In this document: positions 24,936 to 39,754 of the stretch, in pieces
How positions within the stretch are numbered: the first letter of the stretch is position 1
Layout of the letters: every line of letters begins with the position of its first letter
Source of the DNA: an uncultured Gemmatimonadales bacterium
Lineage (GTDB): Bacteria; Gemmatimonadota; Gemmatimonadetes; Gemmatimonadales; GWC2-71-9
NCBI GenBank assembly: GCA_963842945.1
Contig: CAWJIM010000024.1
Coordinates: 32,001 to 96,000, forward strand
DNA length: 64,000 bases
Direction of reading: 5' to 3'
Translations under genes and position numbers: made by a program
Notes under the pieces: generated by a model
Seen by the model: the letters and a program-made list of their open reading frames with translations, nothing else
What the model was told of the DNA's origin: nothing
Database searches by the model: none

Positions 24936-25190
24936 CTATTGCGACAACCGCTTGGGCTCTCCCGAGGTCGGACTTGGGTTGGGCTGCTGAGCGTCCGGCA
25001 GGCGGGGCGGCAGATCTTGTCGCTGCTCGTCGGTGTTCATGATGGCATCTTGCGTGTCAGAAATACTGCGCTTGAACTCTCGAATGCCCTTCCCGATCGA
25101 GGAGCCCATCTCCGGCAGCCGCTTGGCCCCAAAGAGCAGCAGTACGACCAGCAAGATGACCAGAATCTCCCACATTCCGAGGTTTCCCAC
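24936..25190 (-). CDS. tatA: Twin-arginine translocase TatA/E
   Basis: EILVILLVVLLLFGAKRLPEMGSSIGKGIREFK. Confidence 0.95.
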   Translation of the reverse strand: MGNLGMWEILVILLVVLLLFGAKRLPEMGSSIGKGIREFKRSISDTQDAIMNTDEQRQDLPPRLPDAQQPNPSPTSGEPKRLSQ

Positions 25191-30695: not shown

Positions 30696-31580
30696 TCAGC
30701 GTGTGGCCCTGTTCCGTACCACGAGGAGCTCGGCGTTCCCTGGATCGGTTTGGAAGGCCCAATCCAGAATCATGAAGTTCCGCCCGACATGGGTCACCCG
30801 GAGTGCACCGTATCGGAGAAACTGATCGCCGGCCTCCATCTCGAAGACGTAACCCATGCCCGGGGCCGCTTCGATTGGGGTGGTGGCATATCTGCCGCAC
30901 GAGCTGGGATCTGGAGCACTAAGACAGGGCGCGTCATCGATGCTGGTCAGGTCGCCCACCGGATCCTCGGAATAGAACTCCACCCCGGTGCCGGCTCGCG
31001 TCGGCGTCATGAACAACCGGCCCGAGGTGTCACGGTCGACGTAGAAGTCGACATCGCTGGAGGCGCCACTCCGCACCCGGCCCAGCTCACCCTCCTCGAC
31101 TACGTTGTCGCCATCGTCGTCCCAGAACCGAAAGCCGCTGCTGTCTGATTTCACCTGGATAGGATAGAGAACCTGATTGCGGCTGTCCGGCCTTGGAGTA
31201 TCGAACACGGTCCTCGAGCGGTCGCTCTCCGCACCGTTCTGGCCGGCGGAGCTGACCGAGAAGCAACGGGATACTCCGTTCACCATCGCCCCCACCAAGA
31301 ACTCCGGCGCCACCGTGGTACCCTCGAGAGTCCAGGTGGTCCCGCACGGTTCGGTCCCCGCCGGGGCGTCAATGTCGTAGGTGGTGCTGTAGATCCGGTA
31401 GCTCTGAAAATTGTCGGGATCGGATTCATATGCATTGTCGGGCCAGGTGAGCGCTACCGCCCCATTCAGCGTAGTGCTGAAGAGATCAGCCGGCACATCC
31501 GGGGGGTTGCTGGGACTGGTTTGGTCGGACGAACAAGCCATGACCAGCAGGAGGATGACCGGCAGATGCCAGCCTTGCAT
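30696..31580 (-). CDS. Uncharacterised lipoprotein
   Basis: Lipobox LVMAC, FN3-like start (VALTW...YRIY) and acidic DDDGDNVVEEGE loop. Confidence 0.7.
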   Translation of the reverse strand: MQGWHLPVILLLVMACSSDQTSPSNPPDVPADLFSTTLNGAVALTWPDNAYESDPDNFQSYRIYSTTYDIDAPAGTEPCGTTWTLEGTTVAPEFLVGAMVNGVSRCFSVSSAGQNGAESDRSRTVFDTPRPDSRNQVLYPIQVKSDSSGFRFWDDDGDNVVEEGELGRVRSGASSDVDFYVDRDTSGRLFMTPTRAGTGVEFYSEDPVGDLTSIDDAPCLSAPDPSSCGRYATTPIEAAPGMGYVFEMEAGDQFLRYGALRVTHVGRNFMILDWAFQTDPGNAELLVVRNRATR

Positions 31581-31708: not shown

Positions 31709-34700
31709 TTATTCGTCGAAGGTGGTCTGGTTGTAGTCGAACTTCAGGTCCGGCAGGTCGGTCAGATAAATGGAGAAGTAAAACGCGAAGTTGCCGTTGG
31801 CGTTCCGCACGAAGTTGAAGCCGGCCCGCCACTCGTGCAGCTGCCGCTCCAACCGGACCACCTGAGATTCGAACTCGGTGTCGGTGATGTTGTACTGCGA
31901 CGACCAGGAGAGGGACCAGAAGGGTGTGGGGGAGAAGCTGGTACTGAAACCCAGGTTTTGCTGACCGGGCGTACTGGGCAGTCCGGGCACCGGCCGGGAG
32001 CGTGACAGGGTGTAGTTGAAGTTGGCCGTGAACTCCCGGCCGCCGCCATGGAAGGGAACCCGCCCGCTGTTGTAGAACGAACGGTTCCGCCGACCGGCAT
32101 CGACCACGTACGAGGAGGGCACGTTTTCCCGCCGACCCGAAGATCCCTTACCCAGGCCGAAAATCGATCCGATTGAGCGGAGGGTATTTCCGGAGATCGC
32201 AAAGCTGGCGCTGACGTTGCTCAGGAAGAGATCGAACTTGGACGTATCCACGCCCACCGGGCCGCGCCAGAGGTCGTGGGTGAAGCTCAGGGTAAACTGC
32301 GGCAGCAAGTCACTGAGCAACGAATTGGTAATCGATGGTGTCGTCCAGCCCGTCCGTCCCGGCTTCTTGGCCTGCTCGAAATCATAGCTGATAGGGCTGG
32401 TGTTGATGCTCAGCACGCGAAACTTGGCGCGCTTCGGCGCCAGAGGTGTCGCCCGGGGCCCGCTTGGCCTTGGCCTCGAAGGTCTGCGAGAGGCCGAGGC
32501 TCATGGTTTGAGTGGCGTCGCTTCGCAGCTGAAGCGGCTGTCCCGGGGTGACGAGAGCCTGGGCATATTCCAGCGGTACGGACGCCCCGGGCGAAAAATT
32601 CCAGCTCAAACTGGGCGACAGGCTGTGTCTGATGCGGCTGGCAAATCCGAAGCCGGGCAGAAAGGCAAACAGCGTCGGCGAAGCGGTAGCCGAGAACCGA
32701 AAGCGCTTTCCCTGGTGAACGAAGTCGCCATTGGTGTTGCGATTTCTGAGCAAGAAAGGACCCGATGTCGTATTCGCGACGCCCACCGCCGGCTGCACCT
32801 TCCAGGAGCCGCGAAACAGCACCGGCAGATTGATGCCGGTATTCCAATCCACTCCGGTGGAGAAGTTGCCGTTGAAGATGCGGGTGACGGTAACCGAGTC
32901 TGTGGGATCCGGGGTAGTAGGATCGTCGATTCGTAATACGACGCTGTCCCGGCCGGTGCTTCGCTGATCGACGGCCTGAAACGAGTTCTGCCAGTTGAAG
33001 TTTCCGAGTTGCACCGGCGTCTGAAAATCCAGCGAGGAGGTTCGCCGTCCCCCCACCTGCGCCACCGTGTCCAGAATGTTCCCCGGCAGAACCGTCAGCA
33101 GCGAGTCCAGCGGAGTCTTGGACTCGGTGTTGTTGGTGAAGCTGAACCCGGGCGACCAGGTGATGTGGGATCCGATGGCGATCGAGGCCGGGGAGATGGT
33201 TACCGCGGGCAGCAGTTGCTGTACGCTGCCATCGGAGAGACTCTGCCGGCGATTGCCACCGATGGTCAGAGTTCCCCATCCATAGCGCTTGGAAAAGTTG
33301 AGCGAGCTGGTGATCTGCTGGGTATTGAGCAGCGGATCCACCGCATTCCGGTTGATGATCGAGGTGTTGGTCGCGTAATTGAGGTCGAGGTTCAGGCTGG
33401 TGGACAAGTCGAAAGTCTGCCGGTGATCCCAGCGCACCGTGGCGGACGACCCACCCTCTGTCTCCAGCTGCCTGCTGAAGGCCACCGCCCCGTCAACGAA
33501 CCGGTTGATCCAGTGGTACTGCCCGGCTATGCCATACTGCAGGTACCGGTTCGAATACCAATCGAGCCGGGCCGTCAGATCGATGTAATCGTTGGGGGCC
33601 CAGTAATACCCGATGTTCGCGATTTGCCGATTGTATCCGGGATTGGTCCGCACCAGGTCATTAAAGCCGAATTGCGGAATGAGAATGCCCGAGTGCCGTC
33701 CGGGGCGCATGTCCTGAAAGAGGAAGGGCAGCCAGAGCACCGGCACGTCCCGAACGTAGAGGACGACCGGTCGAGCGACCAGCACGTTCTGAGAGACCCA
33801 CTTTACCTCCCGGCCGGCAAAGTGATAATGCGCCACCGGAAGGTCGCAGCTGGTAATCTCGCTGGACGCGGCGTAAATCCGACTCGAGCTGGAGTCCTGG
33901 GAGACGTTGCCCCGGAGAAACCAGACGCTGCCGGCCTCGGTGAAGTTCGTCAGGGCATCCGTGATCACGCCACGCCGGGTGCACGTATCGTAACGTATCC
34001 CCTCGCCCACCATGACCTGTCCCCGGTCGAACAGCTTGGGGTCGCCCGTGGCATCCAGCACACAGCTGGAACGCCGGTACGTGATGCTGCCGGCCTCGAG
34101 TGAGGTTCCCCGTCGTTCGGTCAACGCCTGCCCGTTCAGCAGTACCCGCTGATCCTGGACAAACACCGTGGCGGAATCTGCCCGGTACCGGGTGCTTTGG
34201 TAGCCGGGACGAGCCAGCAGCTCGCTGATCACCGAATCCGGAGTTACAAAGCTGCGAGTAGGCGCCGTGGGCAGACCCAGGCGGCGGGCGGCTGCCGAGT
34301 CCAGAGTTTGTCCCGGCCGCGCTCGGGTCGAATCAGCCAGCGTCGTATCGCGACGCGCCGGCGGAGGGCGGCGCTGCTGGGCCGGCACCTGCGCTTCGGC
34401 CCGCGCACCCAGCAGTGCCAGCAGGAGAAACACGCCCGCGGTTCTACCCGCGAGCGACTCCCGTTCCGCCTTGCGCCGACGGCGCTGCAGAATGAGGGAG
34501 CCGGCAAATCCCACCTCATACAGCACCATAAGAGGCAGCGTCATCATCGTCATGGAAAGCACGTCAGTCCCGGGAGACAGCACCGCTCCGGCGAAAAAGG
34601 CGAGCACGACGGCGTAGCGGCGGAACCGGTTCAGCTCCGCCGGTCCAATGACGCCGAGCCACGACAGGATGATGATGACAAGCGGCAGCTCGAAGGACAG

Positions 34701-35204
34701 TCCGAGTGCCAACGTGATCTGCAGGACAAAGCTGAAGTACGCGTCGTAGGTGATGAACGGAGCGATCGCTTCGCTCTGGAAGCTGAACAACACGCGGAGT
34801 GCCTGAGGCACCACGAAGCGGTAGGCCAGGCCGCCACCCGTCAAAAACAGCACCAGCCCCACGAAGAGTGAAGGAACCAGGGCGCGCTTCTCCCGCTGGT
34901 ACAGGGCGGGAGCCAGGAAGGCCCAGGTTTGCCACAGGATGATCGGGGAGGCGAGAACCAGGCCAACCAGCAGCCCCAGCTTGAGCACGATCATCACCGG
35001 CTCAGTGGGGCTGGTGACAACCAGCTTGCCTCCGGTGAGATAGGGCGCGATCGGTTCTTTCAGGACGCTGACCAGCTGAAAGCGCTGGACCAACCACAGC
35101 CCCAACCCGCACCCCACCACCACGGCGGCCAGCGAACGGAGGATTCTGTGTCGCAATTCCTCGAGGTGATCGAGGAACGGCATTTCTCCGGCAGGACCCG
35201 TCAT
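31709..35204 (-). CDS. Fused TatC + LptD-like outer-membrane protein (~1164 aa after correcting one frameshift at 32426-32427)
   Basis: TatC motifs MPFLDHLEELR, WAFLAPALY, FELP and LYE continue in frame through a signal-peptide-like segment into LptD motifs (ITSCDLPVAHYHF, PVLWLPF, RHSGILIP, GYYW). Confidence 0.85.
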
Positions 35205-35221: not shown

Positions 35222-36004
35222 CTACCGCCCGAGCGCCTTCAGTCGATCACGAGCCAGGGCCGCTTCATCGGACTGAGGATACCGCTGGACCACTCGCTGA
35301 TACGCGTCCCTGGCCTTCTTGGTGTCCTTCCTCCGCTCGGCCAGCAGGCCCAGGTTGTACAGGGCCGAGCTCGCCCGGGAGGAGGTGGGATACTTCTGCA
35401 TCACCTGCTCGTAGTACGCAGCCGCCGAATCCGGGTTCTCCGCCGCGAAGCTTTGCCCAATGAAGTAGAGGGCGTCTCCGGCTCGCTCACTAGTGGGATA
35501 GACCCGAAGCATCTCCCGCAGCCCGAGGCGGGCAGTGGAGGTGCTGCCTCGCCGGAGCTGTGCCAGCGACGCTTCGTACATCTGGTCGGCCGAAGCCGCC
35601 GAGCTGGCCCCAGGCCGGGTAGTATCGCCTGGGGTGACAGTAGCCAGCTGTTCGCCCCTGGCCTCGAGCTGGGTGCGCAGCTCGCTCAGACGCTGCTGGC
35701 TCTGGCCGGTAAGCTCCTGTAATTGCACCAACTGCTGTTGAATGTTGTACAGGTCACTGGCCAGGTCGCCGCGCAGCTGGCCGACCGCTCGACGGCTGGA
35801 GGTGAGTGAATCCATCATGCGCTGCTGTATCCGGATCAACTCGTTCAACTGTGCCGCCCGAACCGAGTCCCGCCGAGCCGTCTCCGCCTTGAACAGGGCC
35901 ACATCGTCTTGCACCTGCTGGACGTCGCCCTTGGACGCGCAACCGGCGAGAAGCCAGATCAGCGAAACGCCCAGCCGGACCGTCAGCCCCACAGAACCCG
36001 TCAC
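35222..36004 (-). CDS. cpoB: Tol-Pal TPR protein CpoB/YbgF
   Basis: Lipobox LAGC, coiled coil, TPRs ending YPQSDEAALA; follows pal. Confidence 0.85.
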   Translation of the reverse strand: MTGSVGLTVRLGVSLIWLLAGCASKGDVQQVQDDVALFKAETARRDSVRAAQLNELIRIQQRMMDSLTSSRRAVGQLRGDLASDLYNIQQQLVQLQELTGQSQQRLSELRTQLEARGEQLATVTPGDTTRPGASSAASADQMYEASLAQLRRGSTSTARLGLREMLRVYPTSERAGDALYFIGQSFAAENPDSAAAYYEQVMQKYPTSSRASSALYNLGLLAERRKDTKKARDAYQRVVQRYPQSDEAALARDRLKALGR

Positions 36005-36576
36005 TGTGGCGCGGTCAGGTTGTTGCCCCCGGCGGTGATCTCGAACTCATCCCGCCGGTTCTGGGCAAAGGCCGTCTCATCGCTCCCCGGATTCAGCGGC
36101 CGCTCTTCACCGTAAGACACGACTTCGAGGCGCGACGCGTCCACCCCCTTGTTCTCCAAGTACCGCTTGGCGGCGGAGGCCCGCCGGTTCCCCAGCGCGA
36201 GGTTGTACTCGTCTGATCCGCGCTCGTCGGCATGACCGGAGATCCGGAGCTTGACCTGCGGATTGGCGGCCAGGATGGCGGCCTTGCGATCCAGGGTTTG
36301 CTGATCGGCGGGACGAACTTGGGCCTGGTCGTAATCGAAGTTGATCATGGCCGCGAGATCGGTCGACACCGTGCGGGCCTTTTCTGCGGCCTCGCGTTCC
36401 ATCCGCTCCTTCTCCAAGCGTTCCCGCTCGGCGCTGTCATCCACCGGCTCGGGAGGCGGAGTCGGCGCTGCCGTGGGCGTGGGCTCGGGCGCGGGTTCCT
36501 CCGGAGCGGCCTTTCCACCGCAGGCAACAGCAAATGCGGCGGCAGTCAAGAGCATCAGCAGGGATGGTGCTCGCAT
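36001..36576 (-). CDS. pal: Peptidoglycan-associated lipoprotein
   Basis: AVAC lipobox, INFDYD, GHADERGSDEYNLALGNRRA and NRRDEF motifs; GGAG RBS. Confidence 0.95.
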   Translation of the reverse strand: MRAPSLLMLLTAAAFAVACGGKAAPEEPAPEPTPTAAPTPPPEPVDDSAERERLEKERMEREAAEKARTVSTDLAAMINFDYDQAQVRPADQQTLDRKAAILAANPQVKLRISGHADERGSDEYNLALGNRRASAAKRYLENKGVDASRLEVVSYGEERPLNPGSDETAFAQNRRDEFEITAGGNNLTAPQ

Positions 36577-36589
36577 CATCACTCCGAAA

Positions 36590-37918
36590 TCATGGGTTGG
36601 GAATGGGAGTGGTCCGCCCGAGTCGGCGGGACCACGCTGGAAGCCGAGCGGCGCCGGGCGTACCCAGTTGCCGCACTCGACCGGTTTCGACGTCCACGAT
36701 CCACATCTGACGACGGCCGCTTCGGTCGGAGATGAAGGCCACGTGGCGCCCATCAGGCGACCAGGTAGGATCTTCGTTCCTGCCCGAAGAAGTGAGTTGC
36801 CGAACCCGCCGTGCCGCGACGTCGACCAGGAAGATTTGGGGGCTACCGGAGACCTCGCGGTGGAATACAACACTGGCCCCGTCCGGGGACCACTCGGGAG
36901 CATTCGAACTACCTGTGGCGCCGTAGTCAAACGGCGCCAGCAGCTCCTGGTCGGTTCCGTCCGCTGCCATTACGTACAACTGAGGCGGCCCTGCCCGCGT
37001 TGAAATGAACGCGATCCTCCGCCCATCTGGCGAAAACGTTGGGCTTAAGTTGTCCGCGAAGCGTCCTACGGTCAAGCGTTGCGCGCAACAGCGCTCCACC
37101 ACATTCGCGGTGTAGATGTCGGTGCCCCGCTCGTCCGAATGGGCAAACGCTAGCGTTCGTCCGTCGGGCGAGAACGTGGGCGTGATATTGAGTGCCGTCT
37201 GTGAGCCCGGAACGGTGAAGCCTGCTCCTCCGCCCAGCGGCTGCACCACGATCCCGCCTTTGCCTTCGCCCATCTGGGTGAAAGCCAGACGCTGGCCATC
37301 GGGCGACCAGGCGGGAGACAGCGAGGTCTGGCCCGCCGGGGTGAGGGGAGCAATGTCCTGCCCGTCGCTGTCGACCCGGTATACCCGGCCCCCGGACACG
37401 AACATCAGGCGACTGGCCGCGGCTCCCGGGCTGCCGCTGGCCCAACGCGCCACTTCGTCGGACAAGCGGTGGACCTCGAGACGAAAGTCGCCCGCGGTCG
37501 TGGCAGGCAGCGTCACGGCTTTCTGGCTTTGCAACTTGGCTTCACCAAGATCGTGCAGCCGGGCGGTCACTCCACTCGATGCCGGTACCAGCTCCACCGC
37601 GAACTGCGCACCGAGCGAGCGATACAGATCGTAGTTCACTCCTGTCGCCGCCTCGGCGGAGCCGCGACCACTGGGGGAGCCCGGGGGCAGATCGGCCACG
37701 GTGATCATCTCGAAGCGGTCGGTGTAATCGAGGTCGCGCCGCACCATGGCGCGCACCGAGTCGAGCCCGGTACCGGGCACGACGACCAGACCGGGGCGCA
37801 TCCCGGGCCGATAATCCACGCCGATCCGGACGCCCTCCTCCACTCGGGTCGTGTCCTGCGCCACCACCGTACCGGCGGTTGCGACCGAGACAACCAGGAA
37901 AAACGGAAATTTGATCAT
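36590..37918 (-). CDS. tolB: TolB
   Basis: Signal peptide and PD40 repeats (PAWSPDG, PTFSPDG, PEWSPDG). Confidence 0.92.
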   Translation of the reverse strand: MIKFPFFLVVSVATAGTVVAQDTTRVEEGVRIGVDYRPGMRPGLVVVPGTGLDSVRAMVRRDLDYTDRFEMITVADLPPGSPSGRGSAEAATGVNYDLYRSLGAQFAVELVPASSGVTARLHDLGEAKLQSQKAVTLPATTAGDFRLEVHRLSDEVARWASGSPGAAASRLMFVSGGRVYRVDSDGQDIAPLTPAGQTSLSPAWSPDGQRLAFTQMGEGKGGIVVQPLGGGAGFTVPGSQTALNITPTFSPDGRTLAFAHSDERGTDIYTANVVERCCAQRLTVGRFADNLSPTFSPDGRRIAFISTRAGPPQLYVMAADGTDQELLAPFDYGATGSSNAPEWSPDGASVVFHREVSGSPQIFLVDVAARRVRQLTSSGRNEDPTWSPDGRHVAFISDRSGRRQMWIVDVETGRVRQLGTPGAARLPAWSRRLGRTTPIPNP

Positions 37919-38613
37919 TGAGTCGGCTTGAAGTAGAAGCTCACCGGGAGCACGTCCGCATCCCAGCCATCAGGCAGCGGGCCAAAGGCCCGGGTATTCC
38001 CCGCGGCCTCGACCGCGCCCTGGGCGTTCAAGTCGAACGCAAAGCTGCCCGAGCGAGTGACGAAATGGATGTCCCGGACGGTTCCATCCCTCAGAATCAA
38101 GAAGCTGATCTCCGCGAAGCTCCGTTGATTGGCCGACGCCCGGTCCCAGCGCTGGTAGATCTGGGTCACGATGTTCCGCAGGTATTCCGGATAGGGGAAC
38201 GCCAGTCCCGGCGTCTTGATTGTCGCCACATCGCTGCCGGTGCTGGGCGTTTCTCCGGGAGCAGGAGTGGCCGGCGACGTGGTTTTGGGTGGCGGCTCCT
38301 TCTTCTCTTCGGTCGGTGGCGGTGGTGGCGTCTTGGGCTTGGGGGGCGCCGGCGCCTTCGTCGGTTTGGGCGGCGTTGGCTTGACCGGGGCCGGCTTTTC
38401 CTCCGGCGGCGGCGTGGGCAGCGCCTCGCGGGCCAGTCGCTTCTGGGTCGGCGCGGGAGCCGCGACCAGATCTACGGCGTAGGTTGGGGGAGATGCCTTA
38501 CTCGGCTTGACGGTGCCGAGAAGAAAACCGACCGCAGCCGCGTGTACCAGAAGGGTCCCGACCATTCCGGCCGCACGACCTGGCGGCTCCCGGTCGGAAC
38601 TCCGAATCTTCAC
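37915..38613 (-). CDS. TolA/TonB-like energy transducer
   Basis: N-terminal TM with His, Pro/Lys-rich spacer, C-terminal SGSFAFD...PLP domain; occupies the tolA position. Confidence 0.85.
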   Translation of the reverse strand: MKIRSSDREPPGRAAGMVGTLLVHAAAVGFLLGTVKPSKASPPTYAVDLVAAPAPTQKRLAREALPTPPPEEKPAPVKPTPPKPTKAPAPPKPKTPPPPPTEEKKEPPPKTTSPATPAPGETPSTGSDVATIKTPGLAFPYPEYLRNIVTQIYQRWDRASANQRSFAEISFLILRDGTVRDIHFVTRSGSFAFDLNAQGAVEAAGNTRAFGPLPDGWDADVLPVSFYFKPTQ

Positions 38614-39041
38614 GACGATTCTTCCTCGGCGGCCACGAGTCCCACGTTCTGCACTCCGGCAGTCCGGATTACGGCCAACACGCGTACCACCTCGCCATAG
38701 GGCACCCGAGTGTCCGCCTGCAGGTACACCCCGCTCGGTTTGCGAGTGGCCACCAGCGAGCGGAAGGTGACCCGAAAATCAGTGTAGGACACTGGGGTTT
38801 GATCAATGAAAATGCGACCGTCCCGATTCACCGTCACCACCATGCCCTCCTTGGGGGAAAGAGGTCGGGCTTCAGCGCGGGGAAGCTCAACATCAACCCC
38901 GCCTTGCATGATTGGTGCCGTAATCATGAAGATAATCAGGAGCACGAGCATAACGTCTACCAATGAGGTGACGTTGACGTCTGCCATCAGCGGGAGCTCG
39001 CCCCGCTGACTGCCTAACCCCCCACCAAGACTCGCAGCCAT
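38610..39041 (-). CDS. tolR: TolR/ExbD
   Basis: NVTSLVDVMLVLLIIFMITAP and AD..VPYGEV motifs. Confidence 0.88.
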   Translation of the reverse strand: MAASLGGGLGSQRGELPLMADVNVTSLVDVMLVLLIIFMITAPIMQGGVDVELPRAEARPLSPKEGMVVTVNRDGRIFIDQTPVSYTDFRVTFRSLVATRKPSGVYLQADTRVPYGEVVRVLAVIRTAGVQNVGLVAAEEESS

Positions 39042-39754
39042 CAGACCAGTCCTTCCCGTGCCATGGTCCCGATCAGCTCGTTGGCAAAACCTTCGAGCTC
39101 GCCGGCAAACAGCCGGACCCGGTTGACATAGAGGTTGTAGGCAATCACCGCCGGGATTGCAGCTATCAGACCGCCGGCCGTGGCCACGAGGGCCTCAGCC
39201 ACGCCGGGTGCCACCGCGGCAAGATTACCTGATCCTTTTGAGGCAATGCCGATAAACGCACTCATGATGCCGAACACGGTTCCGGTCAGGCCGAGCAGCG
39301 GACTGACTGAGCCGATGGTGGCGAGCCAGGGGATGTAATGCCCCAGCAGGTCGCGCTCAGCCGCCACTTCCTTGCCCAACACCATCTTCAAGGCCTCGAG
39401 CTGCGTCATAGTCAGGGTGCTTCGGTCGGCGCCCCGCTCGTCCCGGAGTGCCCCGGGGCGCAGCTCCGAATAGAAAGTCACCGCCTCGCGGAACAGCCGA
39501 TTGTAAGGCGAGGGCGGTAGCTTCATGACCGCGTGATAGGCGTCCTTGAGCCTGGTGGTGCGCTCCATTTCGGTGAAGAAGCGGTCGGCTTGGCGATTCA
39601 GCTTGCGAAACTGCCACCACTTGAGAATGATGATGAACCAGGACACCAGAGAGAACAGCGCGGTAACCAGAAGAACAATCTTCGTCTCCGGGCTCGAGAC
39701 GAGGATCAGCTCGAGCGGGGACTGCGGGACTGCGCCTCCCGATTGCTGGATCAC
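39041..39754 (-). CDS. tolQ: TolQ/ExbB proton channel
   Basis: SPLLGLTGTVFGIM and APGVAEALVATA motifs. Confidence 0.88.
   Translation of the reverse strand: MIQQSGGAVPQSPLELILVSSPETKIVLLVTALFSLVSWFIIILKWWQFRKLNRQADRFFTEMERTTRLKDAYHAVMKLPPSPYNRLFREAVTFYSELRPGALRDERGADRSTLTMTQLEALKMVLGKEVAAERDLLGHYIPWLATIGSVSPLLGLTGTVFGIMSAFIGIASKGSGNLAAVAPGVAEALVATAGGLIAAIPAVIAYNLYVNRVRLFAGELEGFANELIGTMAREGLV

Follow-up and report, generated by a model that had tools for sequence, protein, structure and literature searches.

Can a single open reading frame (ORF) deliver two proteins to two different membranes? The question is raised by a 64,000-nucleotide stretch of DNA from an uncultured Gemmatimonadales soil bacterium (assembly GCA_963842945.1, contig CAWJIM010000024.1, positions 32,001 to 96,000), hereafter the window, where a gene on the minus strand encodes a TatC protein that continues into an LptD-like protein. 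TatC is an inner-membrane protein with six helices and both ends in the cytoplasm, and LptD is an outer-membrane barrel that is exported by Sec and inserts lipopolysaccharide. A preliminary description of the window had proposed that the two are joined by an internal signal peptide. We show here that the same joint is found across the family, and there is hardly any room for doubt that the TatC-LptD fusion is real. Judging by the comparison of sequences, signal peptidase I probably cuts the chain after residue 271, which would give back TatC and LptD.

One frame for TatC and LptD

The frame opens with an ATG at 35204 (minus strand) and runs for 940 codons to its end at 32382. On this window ORF, the Pfam profile PF00902 (TatC) matches residues 12-224 with 204.8 bits (cut-off 25.1), and PF19838 (LptD_2) matches residues 476-921 with 116.7 bits (cut-off 22.5). 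The passage from one to the other is in frame and free of stop codons, as had been described: the last helix of TatC ends in …LYEVGFAGSLIL, and QRRRRKAERESLAGR follows. The linker had also been placed correctly, with coordinates that were off by at most 2 bases. The parts of the gene are the following.

34488..35204, minus strand: TatC core, residues 1-239, six transmembrane helices, beginning with MTGPAGEMPFLDHLEELR (PF00902)
34443..34487, minus strand: basic stretch QRRRRKAERESLAGR after the sixth transmembrane helix (TM6), residues 240-254 (Q240-RRRRK-AERESLAGR), read from the sequence
34407..34442, minus strand: hydrophobic region (h-region) TAGVFLLLALLG, residues 255-266, 12 residues, read from the sequence
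34392..34406, minus strand: c-region ARAEA, residues 267-271, with the putative cut A271/Q272 between 34392 and 34391
34391-34383 and onward, minus strand: Q272-V-P, first residues of the predicted mature LptD (QVPAQQ…), read from the sequence
34194..34391, minus strand: Gln272 and a low-complexity linker rich in R, P, D and S, about residues 272-337, of variable length (from the structural model and the relatives)
33684..34193, minus strand: N-terminal beta-jellyroll of LptD, about residues 338-507 (strands of the model of orthologue L013; profile match to 7omm_A)
31712..33626, minus strand: beta-barrel of LptD, from about residue 527 to the end (PF19838; strands 527-1170 in the orthologue model), interrupted by a frame break

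We searched for this joint in the relatives of the genome. Using a probe of 434 residues (TatC, the joint and the start of LptD), we obtained end-to-end matches without stop codons in 20 of 24 genomes of the same genus, at 72-83% identity and in open frames of 783-1207 codons (one of the 20, G003, is flagged as unpublished). Two more genomes (G011 and G005) have a match that runs beyond the joint to the contig end. The joint was not reached in the last two, as one matched at residues 1-202 only (G017) and the other has a TatC of 44% identity where a contig ends (G001). A first sample of the family comprised 201 genomes of 78 genera and gave 150 listed matches from 149 genomes. The joint is free of stop codons in 149 of these 150 matches (148 of the 149 genomes), at identities down to 45%, and G090 has one TAA across it. 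The remainder of the 201 consists of 36 genomes with weaker matches only, 8 with unlisted matches (best E down to 8.8e-105), and 8 without a match. Once the five genomes flagged as unpublished are set aside (G108, G174, G227, and G238 among the 148 fused, and G054 with a weaker match), 144 of the 196 sampled genomes are fused. In a second sample, which was phylum-wide with completeness of at least 80%, the fusion was present in 99 of the 114 genomes of the family; among the unpublished ones, this sample holds G108 and G227, which are fused, and G289, which is not.

Protein and contig databases hold many more copies. Among 8000 scored candidates, 598 proteins reach E <= 1e-5 against the joint region. 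Both PF00902 and PF19838 are present in each of the best 120 of these 598, and 115 of the 120 have at least 1100 residues; these are the long TatC relatives that the preliminary description suggested looking for. Where their sources name them, the best 120 are just called 'TatC'. At the DNA level (genome_contigs), 577 stretches encode relatives. The best 80 of the 577 all come from metagenome-assembled genomes (MAGs), labelled Gemmatimonadales, Gemmatimonadota, or Gemmatimonadaceae, save one labelled Acidimicrobiia, and no cultured strain with the fusion was found among these 80. The contig with the Acidimicrobiia label (L095) carries a typical fusion, 53% identical, and probably represents Gemmatimonadota DNA that was mis-binned. 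Chance does not account for the joint, which recurs in hundreds of independent assemblies. Close relatives might have had separate genes, in which case the proposal would have lost its ground; they turned out to be fused.

What are the two halves? Because the frame is broken in the window, we modelled an intact orthologue of 1173 residues (L013) with AlphaFold2 (AF2), which gave a mean predicted local distance difference test (pLDDT) of 76.5. This protein scores 203.3 bits with TIGR00945 (cut-off 132.7). Its model has the TatC helices, a low-confidence part at residues 249-299, a beta-jellyroll at 338-507, and a barrel at 527-1170. Foldseek placed LptD chains at ranks 1-15, with E from 9.5e-25 (8h1s_A) to 4.3e-16 and target TM-scores of 0.45-0.59. 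After these came the TatC chain 4b4a (E 1.9e-12, target TM-score 0.79); 4hts and 9dzz were matched as well, and the target TM-scores of the three TatC structures span 0.72-0.79. We then compared with the PDB a profile of 74 full-length fusions, 58 translated from loci and 16 taken as database proteins (alignment A2). It matched the TatC chains 4htt and 4b4a (E ~1e-70), and the LptD chains 7omm_A (E 1.1e-6, query 334-609) and 8h1r_A (E 2.3e-5). The sequence identity to the solved LptD chains is 11-13%. On the TatC side, E15, E16, and E107 are invariant in all 74 fusions; we take them to be the N-terminal and loop glutamates used for signal-peptide binding in E. coli TatC.

The genome is 86.9% complete, with 6% contamination and 4.3 Mb in 24 contigs. 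It has one TatC match and one LptD_2 match, both in the fused gene, and no match to PF04453 (LptD; E <= 0.001) or to PF03968 (LptD_N/OstA). The NCBIfam LptD equivalogs give 21-24 bits, far from their cut-offs of 683-944. The genome also encodes LpxC (one match), LptF/G, and one signal peptidase I (PF10502, E 6.3e-46). Two LptE matches pass the cut-off (C1:141623-142000 of G000 with 49.8 bits, and C15:5743-6123 with 49.6 bits); they lie in 168-codon frames on different contigs, which may mean that the gene is duplicated or that a bin with this level of contamination contains redundant sequence. On this gene content, both halves of the fused gene are needed, being the sole TatC and the sole LptD of the genome.

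The window itself was less simple than the preliminary description had assumed, in that 31709-35204 is not a single ORF. The frame closes at 32382, and the last 235 residues lie in a second ORF (31709-32416) that continues the LptD alignment, so that LptD is spread in this genome over 32382-35204 and 31709-32416. The shift comes from one extra base at about 32426-32427 (context GCGCGCC-AAG on the coding strand of this minus-strand gene). In blastn alignments to the window, three related loci (L043, L045, and L069) have a single-base gap at that point, and the consensus of 74 orthologues reads ...ARKxRLLSIxTS... straight across it. By this comparison, the extra base was probably introduced in the assembly. 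Of the 74 related loci that were parsed, 6 have broken frames (L046, L076, L102, L107, L116, and L121); they are 6 of the 22 from one MAG series, against 0 of the 52 others. Such clustering indicates a technical cause, i.e., indels, and the window genome may come from the same kind of assembly. The other explanation is that the break is real, and that LptD has lost about 235 residues in a decaying gene. The base is indeed present in the assembly, and public contigs leave its site uncovered. Yet, besides the clustering just described, the genome has LpxC, LptF/G, and LptE but no other gene of the LptD family than this one, and its frame downstream of the break is intact and conserved. We thus regard gene decay as unlikely. 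The warning of indel errors given in the preliminary description probably applies to this base, whereas the joint itself recurs intact in relatives.

The signal peptide at the joint and its origin

We counted as a signal peptide a segment with a positive n-region, an h-region of about 7-20 residues, and small residues at -3 and -1. The window has all three, in the order RRRRK...R, TAGVFLLLALLG, and ARAEA followed by Q. The -1 position had been placed at residue ~271, and this was right (A271, then Q272). What sets this segment apart is its location at residues 240-271, behind six TatC helices and not at an N-terminus. QRRRRKAERESLAGR is both the shortened cytoplasmic tail of TatC and the n-region of the internal signal peptide.

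The 74 fusions of the alignment share this anatomy. Counted from the Gln, position -1 is Ala in 66, Gly in 5, and Ser in 3, i.e., one of these three small residues in 74/74. Position -3 is Ala in 50, Leu in 12, Gly in 5, Val in 4, Thr in 2, and Met in 1 (Ala, Gly, Val, or Thr in 61). Pro stands at -4 in 31/74, and Pro or Gly is common at -4 to -6. The uncharged run up to -6 has 13-20 residues (median 16), and the net charge of the 10 residues before the hydrophobic stretch ranges from 0 to 6 (median +5). An RRRR-type cluster is common to all fused relatives whose joint was inspected. After the putative cut, position +3 is Pro in 62/74. Position +1, the first residue of mature LptD (column of Q272, 34391-34389), is Gln in 74/74 fusions and in 14/15 split orthologues, the last of which (L028) is unreadable there. 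This invariance suggests a free N-terminus, possibly a pyroglutamate, with functional importance.

Other aspects of the joint vary. From the LYE motif to the cut there are 36-60 residues among the 74 fusions, and the linker after the cut also differs in length, always in frame. Hence, the frame was kept through many insertions and deletions. The sequence of the h-region is poorly conserved across the fused relatives, as expected for a signal peptide. Of the best 120 database proteins, 118 conform to a regular expression for a basic cluster, at least 10 uncharged residues, and small-x-small-Q. In the other two, which are short at the N-terminus, the motif is visible and lies outside the stretch that was searched. 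The same motif, A-x-A then Gln, closes the N-terminal signal peptides of the unfused orthologues.

These unfused orthologues indicate where the joint came from. In 11 loci of other families of the order (L021 and L023-L032), tatC precedes lptD, and the stop codon of tatC overlaps or abuts the GTG or ATG start of lptD; L033 and L035 are split pairs within the family. The split pairs resemble the fusion in that they encode the same two proteins at the same place behind tol-pal/ybgF, with the same lipoprotein gene downstream in several loci, and in that LptD has an ordinary signal peptide ending in A-x-A then Q(V/I/L)P (except in L028, whose signal peptide is again unreadable). They differ in keeping the tail and the stop codon of TatC, the tail in the 11 loci being short (some 20 residues), acidic, and made up largely of Ala, Glu, and Gly, so that two polypeptides are made. 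In L021 (genome G040), the TAG of tatC is directly followed by the in-frame GTG of lptD, which leaves the pair one substitution short of a fusion. On this comparison, the ancestor was tatC followed by an lptD of the LptD_2 type, with overlapping stop and start codons. By the same evidence, the fused gene is this old pair minus the tail and stop codon of TatC, since split sister loci keep both, and the basic residues behind TM6 now serve as the n-region. The gene fusion is genuine and was fixed anciently.

Split genes also occur within the family. We inspected five genomes of the family that had given weak matches only. Two of them (G127 and G050) have tatC and lptD adjacent and split, with overlapping stop and start codons, and in a third (G153) the gene is fused and interrupted by a contig end. 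In the last two (G047, locus L038; and G052, locus L039), lptD has a start of its own and is the next gene after ybgF; the TatC of these genomes (L036 and L037) is encoded on another contig, is more distant (42-45% identical), and has an f2-like tail. These look like cases in which the TatC part was deleted once a second tatC was available. To place such cases, we built a FastTree phylogeny of the LptD part with 89 rows (74 fused and 15 split) and 897 columns, no rows being dropped, and chose six rows of family f2 as the root. The tree implies at least six changes between fused and split, and none of 500 label shuffles gave a number as low. Fused rows enclose four of the split ones, and the fused L022 lies among split f2 rows. 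Beyond the family, we found fused frames in at least 4 of 137 genomes (G035 and G378 of one f2 genus, G285 of f2, and G340 of f4), a lower bound given that there were 222 further matches besides those listed. That both genes survive repeated switching between fused and split is expected if the product returns to the two usual proteins.

Fate of the fused chain

How could one chain supply two membranes? When a signal peptide inserts, its N-terminus stays on the cytoplasmic side; on the periplasmic side of the inner membrane, signal peptidase I then cuts behind a site with small residues at -3 and -1. The C-terminus of TatC is cytoplasmic as well, according to both the textbook topology and the match to structure 4b4a. 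From this we infer a route for the fused protein. The chain would be inserted co-translationally and, after TM6, the h-region would enter the Sec channel with its N-terminus inside and its C-terminus outside. The LptD part, of about 890 residues, would be threaded to the periplasm, and signal peptidase I would cut after A-x-A, at residue 271. Mature LptD with an N-terminal Gln would then be released and proceed to the outer membrane. TatC would retain the old signal peptide as a short hydrophobic tail at its C-terminus because, unlike a normal signal peptide, it would not be released.

Part of this route had been anticipated. The comparative evidence supports the idea of one ORF whose internal signal peptide is cleaved by signal peptidase I to yield two proteins. 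The label 'self-processing' is a misnomer, since the proposed cutter is a peptidase of the host cell and not the protein itself. As for a seventh transmembrane segment, the hydrophobic stretch, with 12 residues in the window and 13-20 in relatives, has the length of a signal peptide rather than that of a stable transmembrane helix.

Several observations weigh against cleavage of a working TatC-LptD precursor. At -3, the 12 fusions with Leu and the one with Met have tolerated but less favoured residues, and the signal peptide was called by rule-based counts. In the AF2 model, TM6 and the h-region are drawn as one helix, with no hairpin, which gives no topological support; the pLDDT is below 50 at residues 249-299 of L013, so the geometry of the joint in this model is unusable. 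The low-complexity linker of variable length behind the hydrophobic stretch could let an uncut chain span the periplasm. Of 24 public sequencing runs, the best contained 0.26 of the sampled words; contigs of four runs span neither 32377-32453 nor 34409-34600, and one of them spans 34195-34408 without gaps. The FastTree phylogeny came with long-branch warnings, and L033 and L035 fill less than half of its kept columns. Finally, the Pfam profile TAT_signal (PF10518) has no match in the genome, and a loose, uncontrolled regular expression gave 72 twin-arginine candidates among 11,886 ORFs, of which 4 look canonical by eye. They lend weak support to the Tat pathway being in use in this genome.

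The main rival explanation follows from some of these points. The chain might stay uncut, the h-region acting as a seventh helix, the disordered linker spanning the periplasm, and the LptD barrel remaining tethered to TatC. The linker and its low confidence would suit such a protein, and so would the long maintenance of the fusion across the whole family. The conservation around the putative cut is difficult to reconcile with it, as positions -1 and +1 are kept in 74/74 fusions while the h-region drifts freely, a pattern that is not easily accounted for unless a peptidase reads the site. In the unfused orthologues, moreover, the same motif closes an ordinary N-terminal signal peptide. A stable helix would be expected to be longer than the 12-20 residues of the h-region. 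A function that depends on tethering also sits badly with the six or more switches that left both genes intact, and with the two genomes that have lptD and tatC on different contigs. An uncut chain is therefore disfavoured, and we consider it quite improbable.

Alternatively, LptD could be made separately from an internal start codon or an internal transcript, the fusion product being a minor or irrelevant by-product. We looked for such starts in the 58 fused loci with DNA, in the zone where they would be usable (starting 12 residues beyond LYE and ending 8 residues short of the cut). At least one in-frame ATG, GTG, or TTG is present in 45 of the 58, and none in the other 13; the window has an in-frame GTG at 34433-34431, as had been noted. 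Most of these codons are GTG valine codons at -12 to -15, inside the h-region, and no position is common across loci. A Shine-Dalgarno-like 4-mer precedes an in-zone start in only 4 of the 58 loci, and a Lys or Arg follows one in only 7. In line with the absence of a good independent start for lptD that was first pointed out for the window, no internal start is conserved across the 58 loci. In addition, there is no stop codon at the joint, so ribosomes translating tatC run on into lptD and the fusion product is made anyway. Separate synthesis of LptD is very improbable.

The least credible alternative, that the joint is an assembly or indel artefact and the two genes are truly separate here, could point to the one-base error about 2 kb downstream in the same gene and to the broken frames of six related loci in one MAG series, but has almost no chance of being right: hundreds of independent assemblies, which come from many studies and from short as well as long reads, have the very same joint in frame, and the out-of-frame TAG that was correctly located at 34446-34444, and that an indel might have brought into frame, is not conserved as a stop codon in relatives.

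Genomic neighbourhood, precedents, and significance

The preliminary description had placed the gene behind tol-pal, and profile searches agree. The neighbouring features are the following.

39041-39754: tolQ-like gene (Pfam)
37915-38613: TonB_2/TolA-like gene (Pfam)
36590-37918: tolB-like gene (Pfam)
36001-36930: OmpA/pal-like gene (Pfam)
35222..36004, minus strand: ybgF/CpoB-type gene for a tetratricopeptide-repeat (TPR) protein, which closes the tol-pal cluster (Pfam matches include TPR_6 and YfiO)
30696..31580, minus strand: conserved lipoprotein of 294 residues, lipobox LVMAC, downstream of lptD
25044-25181, minus strand: TatA/B gene, the sole PF02416 match in the genome (profile search)

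The end of the ybgF-like gene and the ATG of tatC are separated by 17 bases. In tblastn searches of 121 loci with the fusion or the pair, a ybgF-type match lies directly upstream in 114. The lipoprotein gene follows lptD directly in 66 of the 121, split families included, and many loci end before they could show it. It has no match in Pfam or NCBIfam. Its model (pLDDT 80.8) has an FN3-like fold, with a chain of DUF4466 (4ei0_A) as best match. We considered it as a stand-in for LptE and rejected the idea, as no LptE chain is among the matches listed and the LptE matches of the genome lie elsewhere. Its fixed place after lptD suggests a function in the envelope. About 6.5 kb separate the fusion from the TatA/B gene, which lies downstream and has the same orientation; genes for a histidine ammonia-lyase, TPR proteins, and a polyprenyl synthetase stand between them.

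Each half of the fusion departs in some way from its well-studied counterparts. The TatC half has the six-helix fold of canonical TatC (4b4a, 4hts, and 9dzz), its invariant glutamates, and scores above the cut-offs. It differs in having no free C-terminal tail; instead the chain extends some 900 residues further or, after a cut, would end in a hydrophobic remnant. The LptD half shares with proteobacterial LptD (8h1s, 7omm, 4q35, and 5iv9) a beta-jellyroll and a very large barrel, and there is LptE in the genome. It differs in being of the PF19838 type and not PF04453/PF03968, and in coming from a precursor without an N-terminal signal peptide of its own. The PF19838 type also matched Bacteroides thetaiotaomicron among the control genomes.

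The nearest precedent is FbcH of Bradyrhizobium japonicum, a cytochrome b/c1 precursor which Thony-Meyer and colleagues reportedly found to be cut at an internal signal peptide. The layout of its ORF would be that of TatC-LptD: a polytopic inner-membrane protein with its C-terminus in the cytoplasm comes first, then a segment resembling a signal peptide, and last an exported protein. Both products of FbcH are said to join one inner-membrane complex, whereas TatC and LptD belong to unrelated machines in different membranes and their processing is predicted.

Viruses offer a more distant comparison. In the glycoprotein polyproteins of bunyaviruses and flaviviruses, host signal peptidase cuts at internal signal peptides (e.g., PMC7926653). 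There, too, internal signal peptides split one chain into membrane and lumenal products. These polyproteins are viral and processed in the eukaryotic endoplasmic reticulum, whereas TatC-LptD would be bacterial, cellular, and chromosomal.

A literature search, with subscription journals outside its scope, found no paper on a TatC-LptD fusion, as judged by titles and the opening of abstracts, and none joining LptD with Gemmatimonadota. Passages of a 2013 survey of TatC (PMC3827258) contain 0 occurrences of 'fusion' or 'fused'. The sequences are already public under the sole label 'TatC', and no description of the fusion itself was found. The label arises because these proteins pass the cut-off of the NCBIfam tatC model and not those of the LptD equivalogs.

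The fusion might do more than deliver two proteins. The signal peptide could work as a seventh TatC helix that alters the assembly of the minimal TatA-TatC translocase, an uncut fraction could tether LptD to TatC, or one-to-one co-synthesis could bring sites of lipopolysaccharide (LPS) export close to Tat sites, behind the tol-pal division machinery. That one of these readings holds is rather doubtful; any of them, if true, would be a new coupling of inner- and outer-membrane biogenesis.

Under the bare name 'TatC' that public pipelines give them, these proteins of about 1170 residues hide the sole LptD of hundreds of Gemmatimonadales genomes. Inventories of LPS export in the Gemmatimonadota, a soil phylum, will therefore wrongly report LptD as missing. 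The locus also illustrates how topological compatibility lets unrelated neighbouring genes fuse with their function kept, as the C-terminus of TatC and the N-terminus of a signal peptide are both cytoplasmic. If the chain is cut as proposed, this would be a widespread cellular example of a bacterial polyprotein whose halves are bound for different membranes. It would provide a test of whether signal peptidase I reads a signal peptide behind six transmembrane helices, and a natural design for making an inner- and an outer-membrane protein from one ORF in a fixed proportion.

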